18,533 nt of DNA from a virus. Made by a program: the position numbers and the translations under genes. Positions within the stretch are counted from its first letter, which is position 1; each line of letters opens with the position of its first letter. The stretch lies in UHGV virus genome UHGV-2195102; one strand, 5' to 3'. The notes under the pieces are model-generated. The model was not told the DNA's origin. It saw only the letters and a program-made list of their open reading frames with translations, and did not search any database. Positions 7,169-13,760 of this stretch are shown here, one piece after another.

Positions 7169-7756
7169 CTAAAAAAAGAAGTGTATTATTGCCCAAACAG
7201 CTATAACGATGATTCCCAGCCCAAGAGCCGATTCTAACTTATCTTTGGCAGTCATTTTTACTGTTGTAGCGGGCGCAGGTAAGTCTTGCTGCTGTGGATT
7301 TTCTGTTAGTTGTTTACGAGAAGAAACATCGCCCCTATTAGTTTGCTTCATGTTGATTACAGATGCGTTATGGGCATTATCAGCAGCAATTGACTGAAGT
7401 TTTACAAAAGTTTTTGAATCTGTTTTAGCCAGAAGTAACCTATTTCCCGTAAACATTGCCTTAAAAGTGATAGTTTTTTTCGTCTTGTCCGCCGCACCAA
7501 GCAAACCTCCAATGACCAACCCTGCACCACCAAAGATTAATCCACCAAGCAAACCTGCGCCTGCCGCCTTACCTATACGACTTTCCTCTTCACTATCCGC
7601 AAGTTCAATCGATAAAAGCTCTTCTTTCAGATTTAATACAATATTTTCAGGAAAGCCTTGTTTTGGTTTTTTGGCAAACACGATGGTACCGAACCCCATG
7701 CTTGCCCACCCTTTAGGAAAACTTCCTGCGATAACCTGAATCCCTGCCATGTTCAT
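7169..7756 (-). CDS. glycine-zipper membrane protein (about 195 aa), unknown function
   Basis: Start region reads GTG-ATG-AAC-ATG; AGGTGA lies upstream of the ATGs at 7756 and 7750. Central GxxxG-rich segment GAGLLGGLIFGGAGLVIGGLLGA and C-terminal hydrophobic tail LGLGIIVIAVWAIIHFFF. Noticeably AT-rich compared with flanking phage genes. Confidence 0.6.
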   Translation of the reverse strand: MNMAGIQVIAGSFPKGWASMGFGTIVFAKKPKQGFPENIVLNLKEELLSIELADSEEESRIGKAAGAGLLGGLIFGGAGLVIGGLLGAADKTKKTITFKAMFTGNRLLLAKTDSKTFVKLQSIAADNAHNASVINMKQTNRGDVSSRKQLTENPQQQDLPAPATTVKMTAKDKLESALGLGIIVIAVWAIIHFFF

Positions 7757-7840
7757 CACCTTTTACATTAAAATTTCAGAACGCAGCATGATGCCGCCTT
7801 TGTCTTTTTTCTGATCCCATGGTAATTCAGCTGTTATTTT

Positions 7841-8827
7841 CTATTTAAGAATAAAACGGTATTTACTGTCAGGAGTGCTTTGCTGATCAAGTAGCAGTGA
7901 ACGACATGGAGCAGTCAAAACCCGAGCATAACTACCATCAGGGCTTATGTTAATGTAACAAACCTTGCCCTTAACACTATAATTTTCGGGGACGGATGCC
8001 TTTGCTGATACAGTAAATTTAAGGGTATGCCAGCCCGTTTTTTGCTTGTAGCTTGAAACCGAATGGAAATCATCTGAGTACTTATTTAACCCTGGAAACA
8101 TGCTGCGCAGTGCGGGGATGGAATCTTCTATTATTTTATCGTTGGTTTTAATGTTAAAAACGCTGGTTTCAGTAGAAGCTACTGCTTTGGCATTTCCCCA
8201 TTTACCAGCGAACACAATCATTCCCACGAAAAATATTGCTACAAGAACTAACACTCCCCCCAACACTACTACATGAGGCTTCCGGCTTCTGGTTGGTACA
8301 GTTGCGACTGATTTTGCACCGCTTTCCGATGGAGGTGATAGAGTTTTACTCTCATCACGAATATTCAGCAGATCATCAAAATAACCAAACACAGCCTGCA
8401 ACTGCTCTTTGTCTAGGCCTTTAAGATGGGTTGTACCGAAATGCTTCAGACAGTATCTGTCACGGTCAAGACGATACCCAGGGTCAGTAAGCGCCATTAT
8501 TTTGCTGACCAGAAGATTACAGTCCTTCATATTCTGGATCTGTTGTGCATATCTCTGAAGGATCTCAACCGCACCATGATAATCAGCCGCAGTCATTTCA
8601 TTAACTGTTTTGGTATTAAGTTTCGTGTGGATCGTCATCCATAGCTCGCGCTTACTTTCCCCCAGATCAACCAATTCATCCATCAATCTGTGTAAATCGC
8701 GTTTTTGCAGCAACGAAATTGGTTGCTGGGCCGAAGGAAGTATGTCAGCAGAATAGTTATGAATGGTAACATCACCGCTGACAACGTTACCCACATCCCC
8801 GTTAACTGTTTGCTTCTCTTTACTCAT
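7841..8827 (-). CDS. single-pass membrane protein (328 aa), unknown function; translationally coupled to the repressor gene
   Basis: ATGA overlap with the repressor stop at 8824-8827 confirmed in sequence. Soluble N-terminal ~185 aa, TM segment HVVVLGGVLVLVAIFFVGMIVFAG, C-terminal ~120 aa domain. AT-rich. No family recognised. Confidence 0.6.
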   Translation of the reverse strand: MSKEKQTVNGDVGNVVSGDVTIHNYSADILPSAQQPISLLQKRDLHRLMDELVDLGESKRELWMTIHTKLNTKTVNEMTAADYHGAVEILQRYAQQIQNMKDCNLLVSKIMALTDPGYRLDRDRYCLKHFGTTHLKGLDKEQLQAVFGYFDDLLNIRDESKTLSPPSESGAKSVATVPTRSRKPHVVVLGGVLVLVAIFFVGMIVFAGKWGNAKAVASTETSVFNIKTNDKIIEDSIPALRSMFPGLNKYSDDFHSVSSYKQKTGWHTLKFTVSAKASVPENYSVKGKVCYINISPDGSYARVLTAPCRSLLLDQQSTPDSKYRFILK

Positions 8828-9249
8828 CTTCTCTTGGTATTTTTGTTCATTATTCCACCTGTTCCTATGGTTACGTTACCTTTGATAACATTCCCCAGAA
8901 CATCTCCATGAATAACCTGTTCCGCCCGTTCTCTGGAGGAGCCAGTAGTCAAGGCCGACAAAACTGAACCTTTGACCTGTAATGGTGCCTGCCGGTAGTG
9001 CTGCAGTAACTCCATTTCATCACGTGATAAAGTTATACCTGATGACTCCCCGGTAAGAATGAACTGTACATTGGCCCCAATTCTTGCAAAGGCTGCAAGT
9101 AACTCACCTCCGGGAACAGCAACCCCTCGTTCATATTTCCCCCACATTTCTCTTGAAACGCCACAAAGGGCTGCTACTTCAGCCTGCTTGAGTGATAACC
9201 GCGAACGCTCAGCTTTGAACCGCGACGCGCAAAGAGAATCAAAATTCAC
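8824..9249 (-). CDS. XRE-family HTH transcriptional repressor (prophage c-type repressor)
   Basis: HTH segment LSLKQAEVAALCGVSREMWGKYERG. Preferred start GTG 9249..9247 with GAGG 5 nt upstream; the ORF track start ATG 9285 would place the plus-strand promoter and palindrome inside the coding region. Divergent from the early operon. Confidence 0.7.
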   Translation of the reverse strand: MNFDSLCASRFKAERSRLSLKQAEVAALCGVSREMWGKYERGVAVPGGELLAAFARIGANVQFILTGESSGITLSRDEMELLQHYRQAPLQVKGSVLSALTTGSSRERAEQVIHGDVLGNVIKGNVTIGTGGIMNKNTKRR

Positions 9250-9259
9250 ATAAACCTCA

Positions 9260-9288
9260 TTGACAATGAGAACAATAGTTCTCATAAT
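9260..9288 (+). promoter_or_regulatory. putative early promoter: -35 TTGACA (9260-9265), 17-nt spacer, -10 CATAAT (9283-9288), with operator palindrome GAGAAC-N4-GTTCTC (9268-9283) in the spacer
   Basis: Read directly from sequence: consensus -35, 17-bp spacing, near-consensus -10, about 45 nt upstream of the ner-like start; the perfect 6-bp inverted repeat overlaps the spacer and -10. Confidence 0.5.
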
Positions 9289-9335
9289 CTATCACATATA
9301 AAACAAACATCATTGCATCAACAAAGGAGACAACA

Positions 9336-9524
9336 ATGACTTCCGAACAAGTTAAAAATCTCTTCCGTCAGCGTGGTATCACGTTTACCCGCTGGGCCGA
9401 AGAACACGGCTACAGCCGCAATGAGGTCTATCGTGTTCTCAATGGACAGACCAAAGCTCGTTACGGCAAAGCCCATGAAATTGCCGTAAAACTGGGATTA
9501 AAACCCACGTCAAATGCGGCATAA
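9336..9524 (+). CDS. small HTH DNA-binding protein in the Ner/Cro position (62 aa)
   Basis: AGGAG 9325-9329 before ATG 9336. First gene of the rightward early operon, divergent from the repressor. Sequence MTSEQVKNLFRQRGITFTRWAEEHGYSRNEVYRVLNGQTKARYGKAHEIAVKLGL is consistent with a small HTH regulator. Confidence 0.6.
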   Translation: MTSEQVKNLFRQRGITFTRWAEEHGYSRNEVYRVLNGQTKARYGKAHEIAVKLGLKPTSNAA

Positions 9525-9576
9525 ATTTTCCACATATGCAACAGGTTATCACATATTGCAAAAATGGAAATGTGAC

Positions 9577-9885
9577 ATGAGTAAAGTAAATATTTCCAGT
9601 TCTGGGACCCGCATCCTACGTGTACTCAAAGCTCTACGCGGTCATGCTCTGAACGGTGTTTCTAACGGTGAACTGGCATCAGCCCTGGGGGAGTCCCCGG
9701 CGAATATCAATCGAGCACTTAATACCCTTATTGAAGAGGGACTGGCCATGAAATTAGAGAACGGACGTTTCGCACCGGGAATCCAGTTACTACAGATCGC
9801 CATGGCTCACAGTCACGAGATGGCGCGTGCACAGGATCGTATTAACGAAATCAACCAACGAGTTATTTCAGGTAGTCGTTTGTAA
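9577..9885 (+). CDS. winged-helix DNA-binding protein (IclR-like N-terminal HTH pattern), about 102 aa
   Basis: Preferred start ATG 9577 (the ORF track start 9514 overlaps the ner-like gene). Sequence TRILRVLKALRGHALNGVSNGELASALGESPANINRALNTLIEEGLAMKLENGRF resembles a winged-helix HTH. Confidence 0.5.
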   Translation: MSKVNISSSGTRILRVLKALRGHALNGVSNGELASALGESPANINRALNTLIEEGLAMKLENGRFAPGIQLLQIAMAHSHEMARAQDRINEINQRVISGSRL

Positions 9886-9895
9886 GGAGTAATCA

Positions 9896-10810
9896 ATGGG
9901 ACGCACCAAATCACCCGTTAACACTGAACTGAATGTTGAGGTTCCGCTGTCAGATAACATCAATGTCAATTTGAACGCTATGACACAGCATCGCATGGAA
10001 ATTATGCAGCAGTTTGGTGATGGACTGCCTTATGAACGTGATCGCATTGTTCACGAAGCACGTTTTTATATGGCGCAGAGTGCTGAATCTATGCTGGAAG
10101 CGGGTAAGCGGCTGATCATCTTAAAAGAAAATGAGCCACACGGTGATTTTACAAACATTTTAGAAAATGAACTCGGACTTGCACCACAAGTTGCTCGCCG
10201 CATGATGCAAGCCAGTATGAAGTTTTTGGGAGAAGGTGATGAGCCAACAAAACGCTCAACGTTGAGCGTTTTGGGGAAAGCCAAACTGTACGACCTGATG
10301 GTTCTGGATAATGAAGAACTTGATGAATTGGCCGACGGCGGCACAGTTGCCGGCCTGACGCTTGACGACGTTGATCGCATGTCAGTACGTGAATTGCGTC
10401 AGGCCCTGCGCGAAGCGCGCGAAACCAACGCAGCACAACAGCGCGTACTCGCTGACAAAAATGAAAAAATAGACTCACTCTCCACCAGACTGGAGAAGAA
10501 ATCCCGTATTCAGCCGCCTGAGCCTGATGAAGAGGTTAAGAAGCTGCGGGCGGAAGTGACAGCATTAGCGGTTGAGGCGGAATCTGCTATCGCCGTTCGA
10601 CTGTCCAGCGCTTTTGAGACGCTGTGCGCATATTGTGCTGAAAACATGATTGATACCCCCAGAGACTTCATGGCAGGCCTGGTCTGTCAACTGGAAAGCA
10701 CAGCGCGTAGCCTGCGCTCCACATTTGACCTGCCGGATGAGCCAACAGGCAATGCCGCGCCTTCATGGCTGACTGAGCCGACGCCACAGATTAACGGGCT
10801 GGAGGCATAA
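9896..10810 (+). CDS. hypothetical early protein (304 aa), coiled-coil rich
   Basis: AAGGAG 9884-9889 before ATG 9896; ends 3 nt before the transposase start. No family recognised with confidence. Confidence 0.6.
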   Translation: MGRTKSPVNTELNVEVPLSDNINVNLNAMTQHRMEIMQQFGDGLPYERDRIVHEARFYMAQSAESMLEAGKRLIILKENEPHGDFTNILENELGLAPQVARRMMQASMKFLGEGDEPTKRSTLSVLGKAKLYDLMVLDNEELDELADGGTVAGLTLDDVDRMSVRELRQALREARETNAAQQRVLADKNEKIDSLSTRLEKKSRIQPPEPDEEVKKLRAEVTALAVEAESAIAVRLSSAFETLCAYCAENMIDTPRDFMAGLVCQLESTARSLRSTFDLPDEPTGNAAPSWLTEPTPQINGLEA

Positions 10811-10813
10811 CCA

Positions 10814-12583
10814 ATGAATGCTGCCCTGACTGAACGACTGGTTTATGTCGCCCGCGCGGCACGTGACGCGGGGCATGGTAAACGCGGTGCAATATACGAC
10901 GCTGCCTGTGCTGAACTTGGCATGTCCCGCGCCACTCTGCTGCGCAGGCTGAAGGAGGTCTCTGTGACTGATAAACGCAAAAAACGCGCTGATGCCGGAC
11001 GCAGCGCCCTGACCCGCGACGAAGCCGCGCTGATATCTGCCACACTGCGTGAGGCCACCCGCAAGAACGGTAAACGCCTCTATTCCATCGCAGATGCAGT
11101 GGAAACCCTGCGGGCTAACGGCTTTATCACCGCAGGCAGAACAGATGAAACCACCGGTGAGTTTTTCCCGTTGTCTGAAGATGCCATCAGCCGTGCTCTG
11201 CGTAACTATGGCCTGCACCCGGAACAACTGGATGCTCCTGCACCGCATACCGAAGTGGCCAGTCTGCACCCCAATCATGTCTGGCAGATTGACGCCTCAC
11301 TCTGCACGCTTTACTACCTGAGCAATGGACATAAAGGGCTGCAGGTGATGGACAGCGCGAAGTTCTACAAGAACAAGCCCGCTAACCTTGCCCGTATCGC
11401 CAGTGACCGCGTGTGGAGTTACGAGATTACCGACCATGCCAGCGGCTGGATTTACGTTGAGTATGTGACGGGCGCGGAATCAGGTGAGAACCTGTGTTCT
11501 GTGCTTATCAACGCCATGCAGGAGCGTGGCGGCGCAGACGTGCTGCACGGCGTGCCAAAAATACTCTATCTCGACCCCGGCTCGGCAAACACCGCGGGTA
11601 TGACGAAAAACATGTGCCGCTCACTGGGCATCGACCTGATAGCGCACAAGCCGCATAACGCCCGCGCCACCGGACAGGTGGAAAAGGCGCGGGACATTAT
11701 CGAACGCAAGCTGGAGCCGGGTCTGAAGTTCCGGCCGGTTCACAGTCTGGAAGAACTCAATGCGCTGGCCGCGAAATGGCGCAGCCACTTTAACGCCACG
11801 GCTGTTCACAGCCGCCACGGTAAAACCCGCACGGATATCTGGCTGAAGATTACTGCTGAGCAGCTGAAAAAAGCGCCTTCCGTTGAGGTATGTCGTGAAC
11901 TGGCTGTGGCGGCACCAGAACTCCGCAAAGTCACGCCAAAACTTCGTGTCTCGTTCCGGGGCACTGAATTTGACGTATCAACGGTACCGGGCGTACTGGT
12001 CGGTGAAAAACTGATGATTACCCGTAACCCGTGGCGCAGCGATGTGGCACAGGTGGTTCTGACCGGTGAGGACGGCCACGAGACGTTCTTCCTGGTCGAA
12101 GAAGTCAGAAAGAACGAGTTTGGCTTTGCTGAAGGCGCGGCGGTATTTGGCGAAAGTTACAAAGCCCTGCCGGAAACCCCGGCGCAGATGGCGGCAAAAG
12201 AAACCGAAGCGCTGGTCACCGGTACAGACAACGCCGCAGATGCAGCTGCCGCACGCAAGGCGAAGGCGCTGCCGTTCGGCGGGCGGCTTGACCCATATAA
12301 ACATATTGATGACGCCACACTTCCGGCCTATATGCCGAAGCGAGGTCAGGCCTCTGACGTACGCGGGCCGCGCACTGAACAACGTCCCATGACTCATGTG
12401 GAGGCCGCGAAAGCCCTGCGCGATAAGTTCAGCGCCGACGGCCTTACCTGGACGCCGGAACATTACCGCCAGTTAACGGCACAGTATCCGGACGGCGTAC
12501 CGGAAGCCGCACTGGATGAAGTCATGGCCACGCTGACCACGCCGGCCCGCAGCAGCGTTATCAGCATTGTTAACGGCAACTGA
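10814..12583 (+). CDS. DDE transposase (Mu A-like, integrase-core rve fold)
   Basis: 589-aa ORF with candidate catalytic residues in HVWQIDAS and ILYLDPGSANT and a downstream Glu region (ATGQVEKARD); immediately followed by an AAA+ ATPase gene, as in the Mu A/B module. Confidence 0.8.
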   Translation: MNAALTERLVYVARAARDAGHGKRGAIYDAACAELGMSRATLLRRLKEVSVTDKRKKRADAGRSALTRDEAALISATLREATRKNGKRLYSIADAVETLRANGFITAGRTDETTGEFFPLSEDAISRALRNYGLHPEQLDAPAPHTEVASLHPNHVWQIDASLCTLYYLSNGHKGLQVMDSAKFYKNKPANLARIASDRVWSYEITDHASGWIYVEYVTGAESGENLCSVLINAMQERGGADVLHGVPKILYLDPGSANTAGMTKNMCRSLGIDLIAHKPHNARATGQVEKARDIIERKLEPGLKFRPVHSLEELNALAAKWRSHFNATAVHSRHGKTRTDIWLKITAEQLKKAPSVEVCRELAVAAPELRKVTPKLRVSFRGTEFDVSTVPGVLVGEKLMITRNPWRSDVAQVVLTGEDGHETFFLVEEVRKNEFGFAEGAAVFGESYKALPETPAQMAAKETEALVTGTDNAADAAAARKAKALPFGGRLDPYKHIDDATLPAYMPKRGQASDVRGPRTEQRPMTHVEAAKALRDKFSADGLTWTPEHYRQLTAQYPDGVPEAALDEVMATLTTPARSSVISIVNGN

Positions 12584-12593
12584 GGAGGGATAC

Positions 12594-13760
12594 ATGCTGG
12601 TACTGAAGCAGCAACTGAAAGAGGCCCGTATTCCACAGGCGGTGGTGGCGAGAGCTGTCGATGTTTCTGAGGCCACGCTGGCCCAGATTGTGAATCATAA
12701 CGCGTGGCCCCGCACCAGCCCCGGAGAAGTGCGCCGGCGTCTTGCGTCCTGGCTGGAAAGTCAGGGGATTGATACAACGAAGAGTTTTGATGCTGTACAG
12801 GGCGCGGCCACGCCCCGTACAGCGGGTACCACAGATAAAACGAGCCTCAGTGAGGAAGAGAATATGTTACTCAAAAAACAGGTGTTATTTCCAGCAACCA
12901 AAAAAGCGTTTGGTCTTTTCCGTGACCCGTTCGCCGACGAAGCCATGCAGGGTTCTGATGATGTGTTCACCACTCCGGACATTCGCTACGTGCGTGAGGC
13001 GCTGTACCAGACAGCCCGTCATGGTGGGTTTATGGCCGTCATCGGTGAGTCCGGTGCGGGTAAATCCACGCTGCGCCGTGACCTGACTGAACGTATCAAC
13101 CGCGAGAATGCGCCGGTGATTGTTATCGAGCCATACATCATCGCTATGGAAGACAACGATGTGAAAGGGAAAACCCTGAAGGCAGCAGCGATTGCCGAAG
13201 CCATTATCAGTACCATCGCACCACTGGAAAGCATCAGACGCAGTCAGGACGCCCGCTTTCGCCAGCTGCATCGCGTCCTGAAAGACAGCAGCCAGGCGGG
13301 GTTCAGCCACGTTCTGGTGATTGAGGAGGCCCACAGTCTGCCCATTCCGACACTGAAACACCTCAAACGCTTTTTTGAGCTGGAGTCCGGTTTCAAAAAA
13401 CTGCTGTCCATCGTACTGATTGGCCAGCCGGAACTGGCGACAAAACTGTCTGAACGCAATATGGAAGTCCGTGAAGTCGTTCAGCGCTGTGAGGTGGTCG
13501 AACTTCTGCCTCTGGACAATAACCTTGAAGAGTTTCTGACGTTCAAACTGCAACGGGCCGGTAAACAACTGACGGACATTATGGACGCCAGCGCAGTGGA
13601 TGCCATACGTGCCCGCCTGAGCAATCCGGGAAGTCATCGTAAAAATATGGTCAGCCTGCTGTATCCGCTGGCCGTCAGTAACCTGGTAATAGCCGCCATG
13701 AATCTGGCCGCTGAAATCGGGGTTCCACAGGTCAACGCTGACGTTGTCAAAGGGGTTTAA
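12594..13760 (+). CDS. AAA+ ATPase, transposition protein B-like (N-terminal HTH plus P-loop)
   Basis: Preferred start ATG 12594 after GGAGGG 12584-12589 (the ORF track start 12567 overlaps the transposase). Walker A VIGESGAGKST, Walker B-like HVLVIEEAHSL, N-terminal HTH-like segment ARIPQAVVARAVDVSEATLAQIV. Confidence 0.75.
   Translation: MLVLKQQLKEARIPQAVVARAVDVSEATLAQIVNHNAWPRTSPGEVRRRLASWLESQGIDTTKSFDAVQGAATPRTAGTTDKTSLSEEENMLLKKQVLFPATKKAFGLFRDPFADEAMQGSDDVFTTPDIRYVREALYQTARHGGFMAVIGESGAGKSTLRRDLTERINRENAPVIVIEPYIIAMEDNDVKGKTLKAAAIAEAIISTIAPLESIRRSQDARFRQLHRVLKDSSQAGFSHVLVIEEAHSLPIPTLKHLKRFFELESGFKKLLSIVLIGQPELATKLSERNMEVREVVQRCEVVELLPLDNNLEEFLTFKLQRAGKQLTDIMDASAVDAIRARLSNPGSHRKNMVSLLYPLAVSNLVIAAMNLAAEIGVPQVNADVVKGV

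Follow-up and report, generated by a model that had tools for sequence, protein, structure and literature searches.

What keeps the early genes of a transposable prophage silent, and where on the DNA does the responsible protein bind? The question is raised by a short control region at positions 9250-9335 of UHGV virus genome UHGV-2195102, a stretch of 18,533 nucleotides which, at its full length, is called the window below. To the left of this region a gene for a repressor with an XRE-type helix-turn-helix (HTH) domain is read leftward; to the right an early operon, headed by the gene for a small HTH protein of 62 aa which belongs to the BcepMu gp16 family (gp16 below), is read rightward. A preliminary description of this DNA had proposed a near-ideal sigma-70 promoter for a ner-like early operon, with a palindrome in its spacer at which a repressor dimer would occlude the promoter. 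According to our analysis positions 9234-9335 very probably constitute an immunity switch, in which the repressor, acting on two operators termed O1 and O2, controls the early promoter Pe and the early operon.

The early promoter and the palindrome in its spacer

The elements of Pe and of the primary operator are:

9260-9265, plus strand: -35 hexamer of Pe, TTGACA; a -35-like hexamer is present at the equivalent position in most related loci
9283-9288, plus strand: -10 hexamer of Pe, CATAAT; its non-consensus first base C is the outermost base of the operator core
9266-9285: predicted primary operator O1, ATGAGAAC-AATA-GTTCTCAT, centre 9275.5, filling the spacer of Pe

Both hexamers and the spacer of 17 nt (9266-9282) were found upon reading the sequence as they had been described, and so was the inverted repeat GAGAAC-AATA-GTTCTC at 9268-9283. 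The repeat is longer than had been claimed. Around the core GAGAAC-N4-GTTCTC its arms, ATGAGAAC and GTTCTCAT, are perfect over 8 nt; thus, the palindrome extends from the edge of the -35 hexamer to the third base of the -10 hexamer. Judged from the position of the hexamers, transcription from Pe would start at about 9294-9296.

Could hexamers and palindrome be a chance product of an AT-rich intergenic region, with no regulatory role? Consensus scans do give false positives, and at a looser threshold of 9/12 matching positions 1.6 hits are expected in a 1-kb region. Against this, Pe was the sole match of the promoter consensus scan in 8700-9700. It also was the only sigma-70 match of at least 11/12 on either strand of the window, compared with a mean of 0.19 in dinucleotide shuffles. 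When the 86-nt intergenic region was shuffled 20,000 times, a perfect inverted repeat with arms of at least 8 nt and a loop of up to 6 nt arose in 130 cases (0.65%, i.e. p~0.0065), and the perfect GAGAAC-N4-GTTCTC occurs a single time in the window. Moreover, dozens of loci from Gamma- and Betaproteobacteria which have otherwise diverged show this geometry too. The probability of a chance origin is next to nil.

Two further observations on inverted repeats were made. In the whole window four perfect repeats of this kind (arms of at least 8 nt, loop of up to 6 nt) are present, compared with 1.9 expected; the other three are centred near 1974, 10260 and 15553. A second perfect inverted repeat in the control region, CTCATTG-A-CAATGAG (9256-9270), has its centre in the -35 hexamer. 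The motif ATGAG belongs both to this repeat and to the left arm of O1, and the repeat also reaches into the Shine-Dalgarno sequence of the repressor gene. It is not conserved in the Serratia (L053) or Pseudomonas members of the repressor clade and is probably incidental.

Covariation of palindrome and repressor

Is the position of the palindrome a peculiarity of this prophage? A family set was fetched using the gp16 protein and comprised 80 loci from contigs representing one genome per species. In almost all of them the gp16 homologue was preceded, at a distance of 50-140 nt, by a strong sigma-70-like promoter whose spacer contained a palindrome specific for the locus. A divergent XRE-type repressor was encoded at 74 of 82 loci. 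Perfect inverted repeats with arms of at least 6 nt were present in 57% of 63 distinct promoter cores, compared with 2.4% of shuffles and 2.1% of equal-sized windows taken from flanking genes. In these 63 cores the palindrome centres clustered between spacer positions 9 and 10 and between positions 10 and 11. The same layout was found in the isolated phages B3, phiE255, JBD18 and PhiKM and in one Ralstonia phage.

The position of the palindrome was conserved and its sequence followed the repressor. Repressors which were 45-56% identical to that of the window in the aligned core were encoded next to GAGAAY-N4-GTTCTC in six of six cases, one in Serratia (L053) and five in Pseudomonas (L023, L025, L041, L052 and L054). 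All repressors with less than 40% identity were accompanied by other palindromes. Over the family, spacer distance and repressor distance were correlated with a Mantel r of 0.72, a value reached in none of 2000 permutations, and the partial r was 0.66 when gp16 was controlled for. The pairing extended to the recognition helix. VSREMWGK and VSREIWGR went with the half-site GAGAAC, ASRKSQIR with GTCCCA, ASYKSQLR with ATCCCA, ASKRSQIG with GTGCCA and VKKLAQLK with GTATC. An R-to-Y change in the helix accompanies a G-to-A change in the half-site. The closest repressor of all, from Serratia sp. Ag1 (L006, positions 2049-2135 and 2133-2500; 67% core identity), has the helix IKRETWSR in place of VSREMWGK and, at the same place, a different palindrome, ATGTGACTTATTGATCACAT. 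This looks like a recent switch of specificity. The same locus has an additional open reading frame (ORF) between the control region and the gp16 homologue.

Within E. coli the replacement of operator and repressor can be followed at close range. For PhiKM and the chromosome of E. coli JJ1886, homology to the window is confined to the part from 9284 rightward, i.e. from the -10 hexamer. Over this part the nucleotide identity between the window and PhiKM is about 83%, and the gp16 proteins are 87% identical. Left of the junction PhiKM and JJ1886 encode a different XRE repressor of 118 aa, unannotated in PhiKM. Their promoter consists of TTGATA, TGCTCATAATTATGAGC and AATAAT. Again the spacer has 17 nt, and a different perfect palindrome sits at exactly the same place (GCTCAT-N4-ATGAGC versus GAGAAC-N4-GTTCTC in the window). 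A third E. coli type, in MS1737 and USVAST219, has TTGACT, GGTGAGATAATCTGCAC and CATAAT together with yet another repressor. E. coli thus harbors at least three immunity types of identical geometry which differ in O1 and O2. These alignments indicate that repressor, O2, -35 hexamer and O1 are exchanged as one immunity cassette, with the -10 hexamer as the right-hand junction.

The comparison also bears on the identity of the protein which binds the palindrome. Directly downstream of Pe two small HTH proteins are encoded, gp16 and a winged-HTH (wHTH) regulator. The palindrome might be the site of either, and would then serve autoregulation of the early genes and not repressor immunity. Phage lambda offers a precedent, since its Cro and CI proteins share operators. 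However, gp16 and the wHTH regulator are conserved across immunity types with unrelated palindromes, as between the window and PhiKM. In the family set the partial correlation between spacer and gp16 was -0.05 once the repressor was controlled for. Both proteins were rejected as binders of the palindrome on these grounds; this role is extremely unlikely for them. Because the leader of the early transcript and the gp16 gene are common to the immunity types, gp16 must act at a different, conserved site.

Start of the repressor gene, the second operator and the proposed switch

For the left-hand side of the control region the features are:

8824-9249, minus strand: immunity repressor, 141 aa from GTG 9249, the counterpart of BcepMu gp17
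9255-9258, minus strand: Shine-Dalgarno sequence GAGG of the repressor gene, 5 nt before GTG 9249 and abutting the -35 hexamer of Pe
9234-9249: predicted auxiliary operator O2, GAGAATCAAAATTCAC, matching O1 at 9/12 core positions and lying over the GTG and the first five codons of the repressor gene

The PGAP annotation starts the repressor at ATG 9285, i.e. inside O1, and predicts 153 aa. This start was rejected in favor of GTG 9249 on the basis of homologues, the ribosome-binding site (RBS) and the alignment with the P22 C2 repressor. At the position aligned with GTG 9249 the Serratia member of the clade has an ATG with an in-frame TGA immediately upstream, and the Pseudomonas members have GTG or TTG preceded by GGGG. 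In all members of the repressor clade GAGG or GGGG is followed, after 5 nt, by GTG, TTG or ATG. When the protein is read from this start, its N-terminus can be aligned residue for residue with the DNA-binding domain of P22 C2 (phmmer against the N-terminal domain 1adr, E=9e-5, residues 5-70 to 4-70). Almost certainly, then, the repressor starts at GTG 9249, 11 nt left of the -35 hexamer. This sets the intergenic region at exactly 9250-9335 (86 bp). The claim that the repressor start adjoins the promoter was correct, for 9249 and not for the annotated 9285. The extended 153-aa version is found in RefSeq/PGAP entries WP_001259268.1 and WP_001259267.1, also in L001 and L084, and probably recurs in many E. 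coli genomes which carry the identical sequence.

In the protein an N-terminal XRE-type HTH domain is followed by about 70 C-terminal aa. Pfam returned HTH_31 with 30.5 bits (cut-off 27) and HTH_3 with 23 bits (cut-off 23). The LexA-like autocleavage domain S24 (Peptidase_S24) had no match in the 141 residues. The family of the Mu c repressor, whose DNA-binding domain is related to the MuA N-terminus, was not found either, as Pfam and PHROGs returned only XRE-type HTH and generic phage-repressor families.

The RBS of the repressor (9258-9255) abuts the -35 hexamer of Pe; therefore, transcription of the repressor gene must be initiated at O1 or farther right. The leader of this transcript must then contain O1, and the inverted repeat might mainly serve as an RNA hairpin governing stability or translation of the repressor mRNA instead of being a protein-binding site in DNA. 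Indeed, the leftward RNA can fold into an 8-bp hairpin just upstream of the Shine-Dalgarno sequence (-14.3 kcal/mol, z=-2.7). Yet the imperfect palindromes of the family had no bias for G.U pairs on the leftward strand (7 of 36 mismatches, 6 expected). It is the sequence, and not pairing alone, which tracks the recognition helix of the repressor, and the repeat is held in a fixed register with the -35 and -10 hexamers of a promoter on the opposite strand. Furthermore, O2 repeats the sequence of O1 and is a poor hairpin. A hairpin as the selected feature was rejected for these reasons and is very unlikely. An alternative pairing is conceivable in the same RNA, as CTCATTG-A-CAATGAG would allow the Shine-Dalgarno region to base-pair with the 3' arm of the O1 hairpin.

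The centre of O2 is located 34 bp to the left of that of O1, i.e. about three helical turns away, and O2 begins exactly at the start codon of the repressor. To evaluate such second sites, the operator pattern of each locus was matched to that locus at all offsets and scored; the patterns of other classes served as controls. At offsets -36 to -28 a weaker class-specific copy emerged, with a mean score of 7.86/12 for the own pattern versus 5.36/12 for foreign ones (Mann-Whitney p=2e-9). Matches of at least 9/12 were obtained at these offsets with 48% of own and 0% of foreign patterns. The other offset windows on either side of O1 gave no own-pattern signal. Most operator classes have such a class-specific second site. 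The other E. coli types possess an O2 of their own, which in MS1737 is GTGAGTTTTTCTGCAC at -31. JBD18 (L090) shows a variant arrangement: about 60-30 nt upstream of the -10 hexamer, GTCCC-N8-GGGAC-N6-GTCCC places three half-sites around the -35 hexamer, and the second site overlaps this hexamer instead of being three turns away.

The preliminary description had suggested a search for further half-sites. TGAGAAC within gp16 (9435-9441, in a match spanning 9434-9444) is a coincidence. It encodes V-L of the conserved motif VYRVLNGQ and is also present in PhiKM, where the operator is different. A site in the transposase gene, GAGAACCTGTGTTCTG at 11486-11501, has one mismatch to the O1 core. It is probably due to chance (p~0.04 by a rough estimate of our own) and is absent from those clade relatives which cover the position. 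A systematic distant second operator was not found in the family (2 of 41 loci).

We propose the following mechanism. Pe would drive the early operon, which encodes the gp16-family protein, the wHTH regulator, a DUF3102 protein, the transposase and an ATPase. The 141-aa repressor, akin to P22 C2, would bind O1, presumably as a dimer. O1 occupies the whole spacer and the beginning of the -10 hexamer, so that RNA polymerase and repressor could not occupy Pe together, suggesting repression by steric occlusion. O2 lies on the same face of the DNA and over the repressor start; most likely two dimers bind cooperatively and the repressor limits its own synthesis. The repressor transcript would read through both operators. 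Being located in or downstream of the repressor's promoter region, O1 and O2 would upon occupancy also restrict repressor production.

Several points weigh against this proposal. The function assigned to Pe, O1 and O2 is deduced wholly by comparison, different from the anatomy, the positional conservation, the covariation of repressor and operator, O2, the start codon and the family membership, which the sequences themselves establish. In about a quarter of the related promoter cores the repeats are no more than short or imperfect. The O2 of the window, taken alone, is not significant, as the six sites with up to three mismatches in the window equal chance expectation. A single-sequence AlphaFold model of the repressor had a mean pLDDT (predicted local distance difference test) of 46, too low to be of use, and the dimer state is a presumption. 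Finally, the search for the repressor's own promoter yielded weak candidates, none of them decisive:

9286-9313, minus strand: weak proximal candidate, -35 ATGATG (9313-9308), 16 nt, extended -10 TG-a-TAGATT (9294-9286)
9524-9552, minus strand: weak distal candidate in the gp16/wHTH intergenic region, GTGATA (9552-9547), 17 nt, AAAATT (9529-9524)

The proximal candidate, with its -10 at 9291-9286, is back-to-back with the -10 of Pe and is conserved in the three E. coli immunity types and in L053. Here the related phages are informative. In B3 and Fc02 an overlap of the early promoter pE with a repressor promoter pC2 has been predicted, and in Fc02 lysogens a distal promoter, pC1, located beyond ner, supplies the repressor (PMC9936078). 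The distal candidate of the window is a possible analogue of pC1. Tightly overlapped divergent promoters, as envisaged in the preliminary description, are plausible in view of the RBS position and of the B3/Fc02 prediction, yet a convincing leftward promoter did not emerge from the sequence. In Fc02, a B3-like phage, a shift of a temperature-sensitive repressor to 40 °C made pE, which lies upstream of ner, fire in a burst of transcription, as seen by RNA-seq (PMC9936078). That Pe is an early promoter whose spacer holds a repressor operator is strongly supported by this finding together with the conserved position and the covariation with the repressor.

A more specific version of the switch can be drawn up as a minimal, back-to-back design with two operators. 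One tetramer of the repressor, spanning O1 and O2, would silence both Pe and the repressor's own proximal promoter, whose -10 overlaps that of Pe. In the lysogen, repressor would come from a distal promoter running antisense through gp16, as pC1 does in Fc02, and gp16 would act at a separate, invariant site in the leader. In its entirety we consider this design possible, though rather unlikely. As at least 20 classes of repressor/operator specificity exist with an invariant geometry, the family would in this case also provide natural orthogonal pairs and a readable HTH recognition code, for which the R-to-Y change in the helix is an example.

Prophage context and comparison with known systems

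The early genes and their leader, all on the plus strand, are:

9289-9335: leader of the early transcript, conserved regardless of operator class
9336-9524: first early gene, 62-aa HTH protein of the BcepMu gp16 family, with the Shine-Dalgarno sequence AAGGAG at 9324-9329
9577-9885: second early gene, wHTH regulator with an IclR-like HTH, conserved between immunity types
9896-10810: DUF3102 gene
10814-12583: gene for an rve-type transposase (phrog_310)
12567-13760: gene for a MuB-like AAA ATPase (phrog_296)

The 62-aa protein scored 94.4 bits with TIGR04111, the BcepMu gp16 family (cut-off 34), and in a further E. coli record PGAP gives this family name as well. Its sole Pfam match was HTH_31 with 24.2 bits, below the cut-off of 27; a Mu Ner-type family was not returned for it by the Pfam scan. 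The gene is 70% identical to B3 ORF17 over 154 nt. Pe thus lies upstream of an early operon as had been claimed; the term 'ner-like', however, holds for the position of the first gene, and the likeness of its product to Mu Ner is positional and functional only.

The leader contains the blocks TATCACATAT (9290-9299), ACAAAC (9303-9308) and CATCATTGCATCA (9308-9320). ACAAAC and CATC(A/T)TTGCATCA (9303-9320, just upstream of the gp16 Shine-Dalgarno sequence) are conserved from E. coli to Pseudomonas and Photorhabdus, in most of the loci L003-L082, while the operators vary. The leader is a candidate site for gp16, a candidate part of a leftward promoter, or both. Because gp16 also is conserved, our guess is that the blocks are its site. 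TATCACATAT occurs twice, once after the -10 hexamer of Pe, around the expected transcript start, and again at 9547-9556 between the gp16 and wHTH genes, where it is inside an imperfect inverted repeat with arms of 20 nt (9527-9570). PhiKM has conserved both copies, although its immunity type is different. Possibly they are sites for gp16 or the wHTH regulator, or parts of leftward promoters.

The window is a transposable, Mu-like prophage of the BcepMu/B3 type in E. coli. Left of the control region, on the minus strand, the repressor gene is followed by genes for two proteins without assigned function and then by lysis and morphogenesis genes. The first of the two ORFs (328 aa, 7841-8827; phrog_10002) overlaps with its start the repressor stop (ATGA, 8824-8827) and has a weak N-terminal similarity to Flk. 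The second follows it (196 aa, 7169-7759; phrog_12025). Both are probably co-transcribed with the repressor during lysogeny. In the other E. coli immunity types a DNA adenine methylase takes the place of these two ORFs. A PADLOC scan of the genes downstream of the repressor gave no matches. Many E. coli chromosomes contain identical DNA, at differing coordinates, and relatives of the gp16-wHTH stretch were found in 620 of 5426 complete E. coli genomes (about 11%), including JJ1886, a strain of sequence type 131 (ST131). The nearest isolated phage is PhiKM, classified as a Bcepmuvirus.

How does the region compare with known switches? In phage Mu the repressor is encoded leftward and a small DNA-binding protein, the transposase and the ATPase rightward, and the early and repressor promoters are close and divergent. 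The window shares with Mu c/Ner the transposable lifestyle and the gene order. It differs in its repressor, which is of the XRE type only, and in its small early protein, a TIGR04111 member; the Pfam scan returned no Mu-type family for either. The operator also differs, consisting of a single palindrome in the spacer and a weak upstream copy, and so does the location of the module, in the middle of the window beside leftward lysis and structural genes. By the family scans that were run, the switch is not a homologue of Mu c/Ner.

The B3/Fc02 group (Beetrevirus) is much closer. The first early gene is homologous, the divergent repressor is likewise of the XRE/P22-C2-like type, and the intergenic region is short, 106 bp in Fc02 (PMC9936078). 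For a control region of the B3/Fc02 type one expects a divergent XRE repressor and a gp16/ner homologue about 85-130 bp apart, with a strong rightward promoter between them; the window, with a gap of 86 bp, agrees with this. The B3 promoter reads TTGACA, GGTGCAATATTTGGCAC, CACTAT, and its spacer holds an imperfect palindrome in the corresponding place. Differences are the operator (GGTGCA/TGGCAC versus GAGAAC/GTTCTC), the repressor, which is a different allele, and the extra B3 genes between ner and the wHTH gene (ORF16 and the cII-like ORF15). An operator is not described in the Fc02 paper (PMC9936078). In the accessible literature we found no description of operators or promoters for phages of the B3/BcepMu type; the B3 genome paper (Braid et al. 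2004) was outside this scope, and the B3 repeat may have been noticed earlier.

In BcepMu itself gp17 is the repressor and gp16 a DNA-binding protein (PMC2628397). The window is linked to the Bcepmuvirus group by the TIGR04111 membership of its gp16, and phiE255 has a promoter of the same kind (TTGACA, GGTAACGAATTTGTTAC, CATAAT). The window differs from BcepMu, phiE255 and PhiKM in its host, E. coli, and in the specificity class of operator and repressor. phiE255 and BcepMu differ in the repressor gene (PMC2920897). The repressors of KS10 and BcepMu, which are both prophages of strain J2315, are only 36% identical (PMC2628397). These differences fit an exchangeable immunity cassette.

New here are the second operator, the corrected start codon and a family-wide set of covarying repressor-operator pairs. 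Operator, true start and immunity types may be used to predict which transposable prophages are mutually immune and to correct a recurrent annotation error. The cassettes of repressor, operator and promoter are compact, have a fixed geometry and appear to be orthogonal. Altogether, the locus provides a clean comparative example of the co-evolution of repressor and operator and of modular immunity exchange at a promoter.

In its proposed operation the region resembles the lambdoid switches, i.e. lambda CI/Cro at OR, P22 C2 and 434 cI. They have in common an HTH repressor of the same fold class which is divergent from the early operon, inverted-repeat operators of 16-20 bp with AT-rich centres overlapping the early promoter, two or more operators so spaced that cooperative binding is feasible, and exchangeable immunity regions. 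In contrast to lambdoid phages, which have three operators at about two turns, the window has a strong O1 and a weak O2 about three turns apart. Its O1 is inside the spacer and not over a single hexamer. Its repressor is without the S24 autocleavage domain, and the protein in the position of Cro does not share the operators. The region is homologous to the control regions of B3/Fc02 and of BcepMu gp17/gp16 and appears to work in the manner of lambdoid immunity regions. As phage switches go it is of an ordinary kind and adds no new principle, and the evidence for it is unusually clear.

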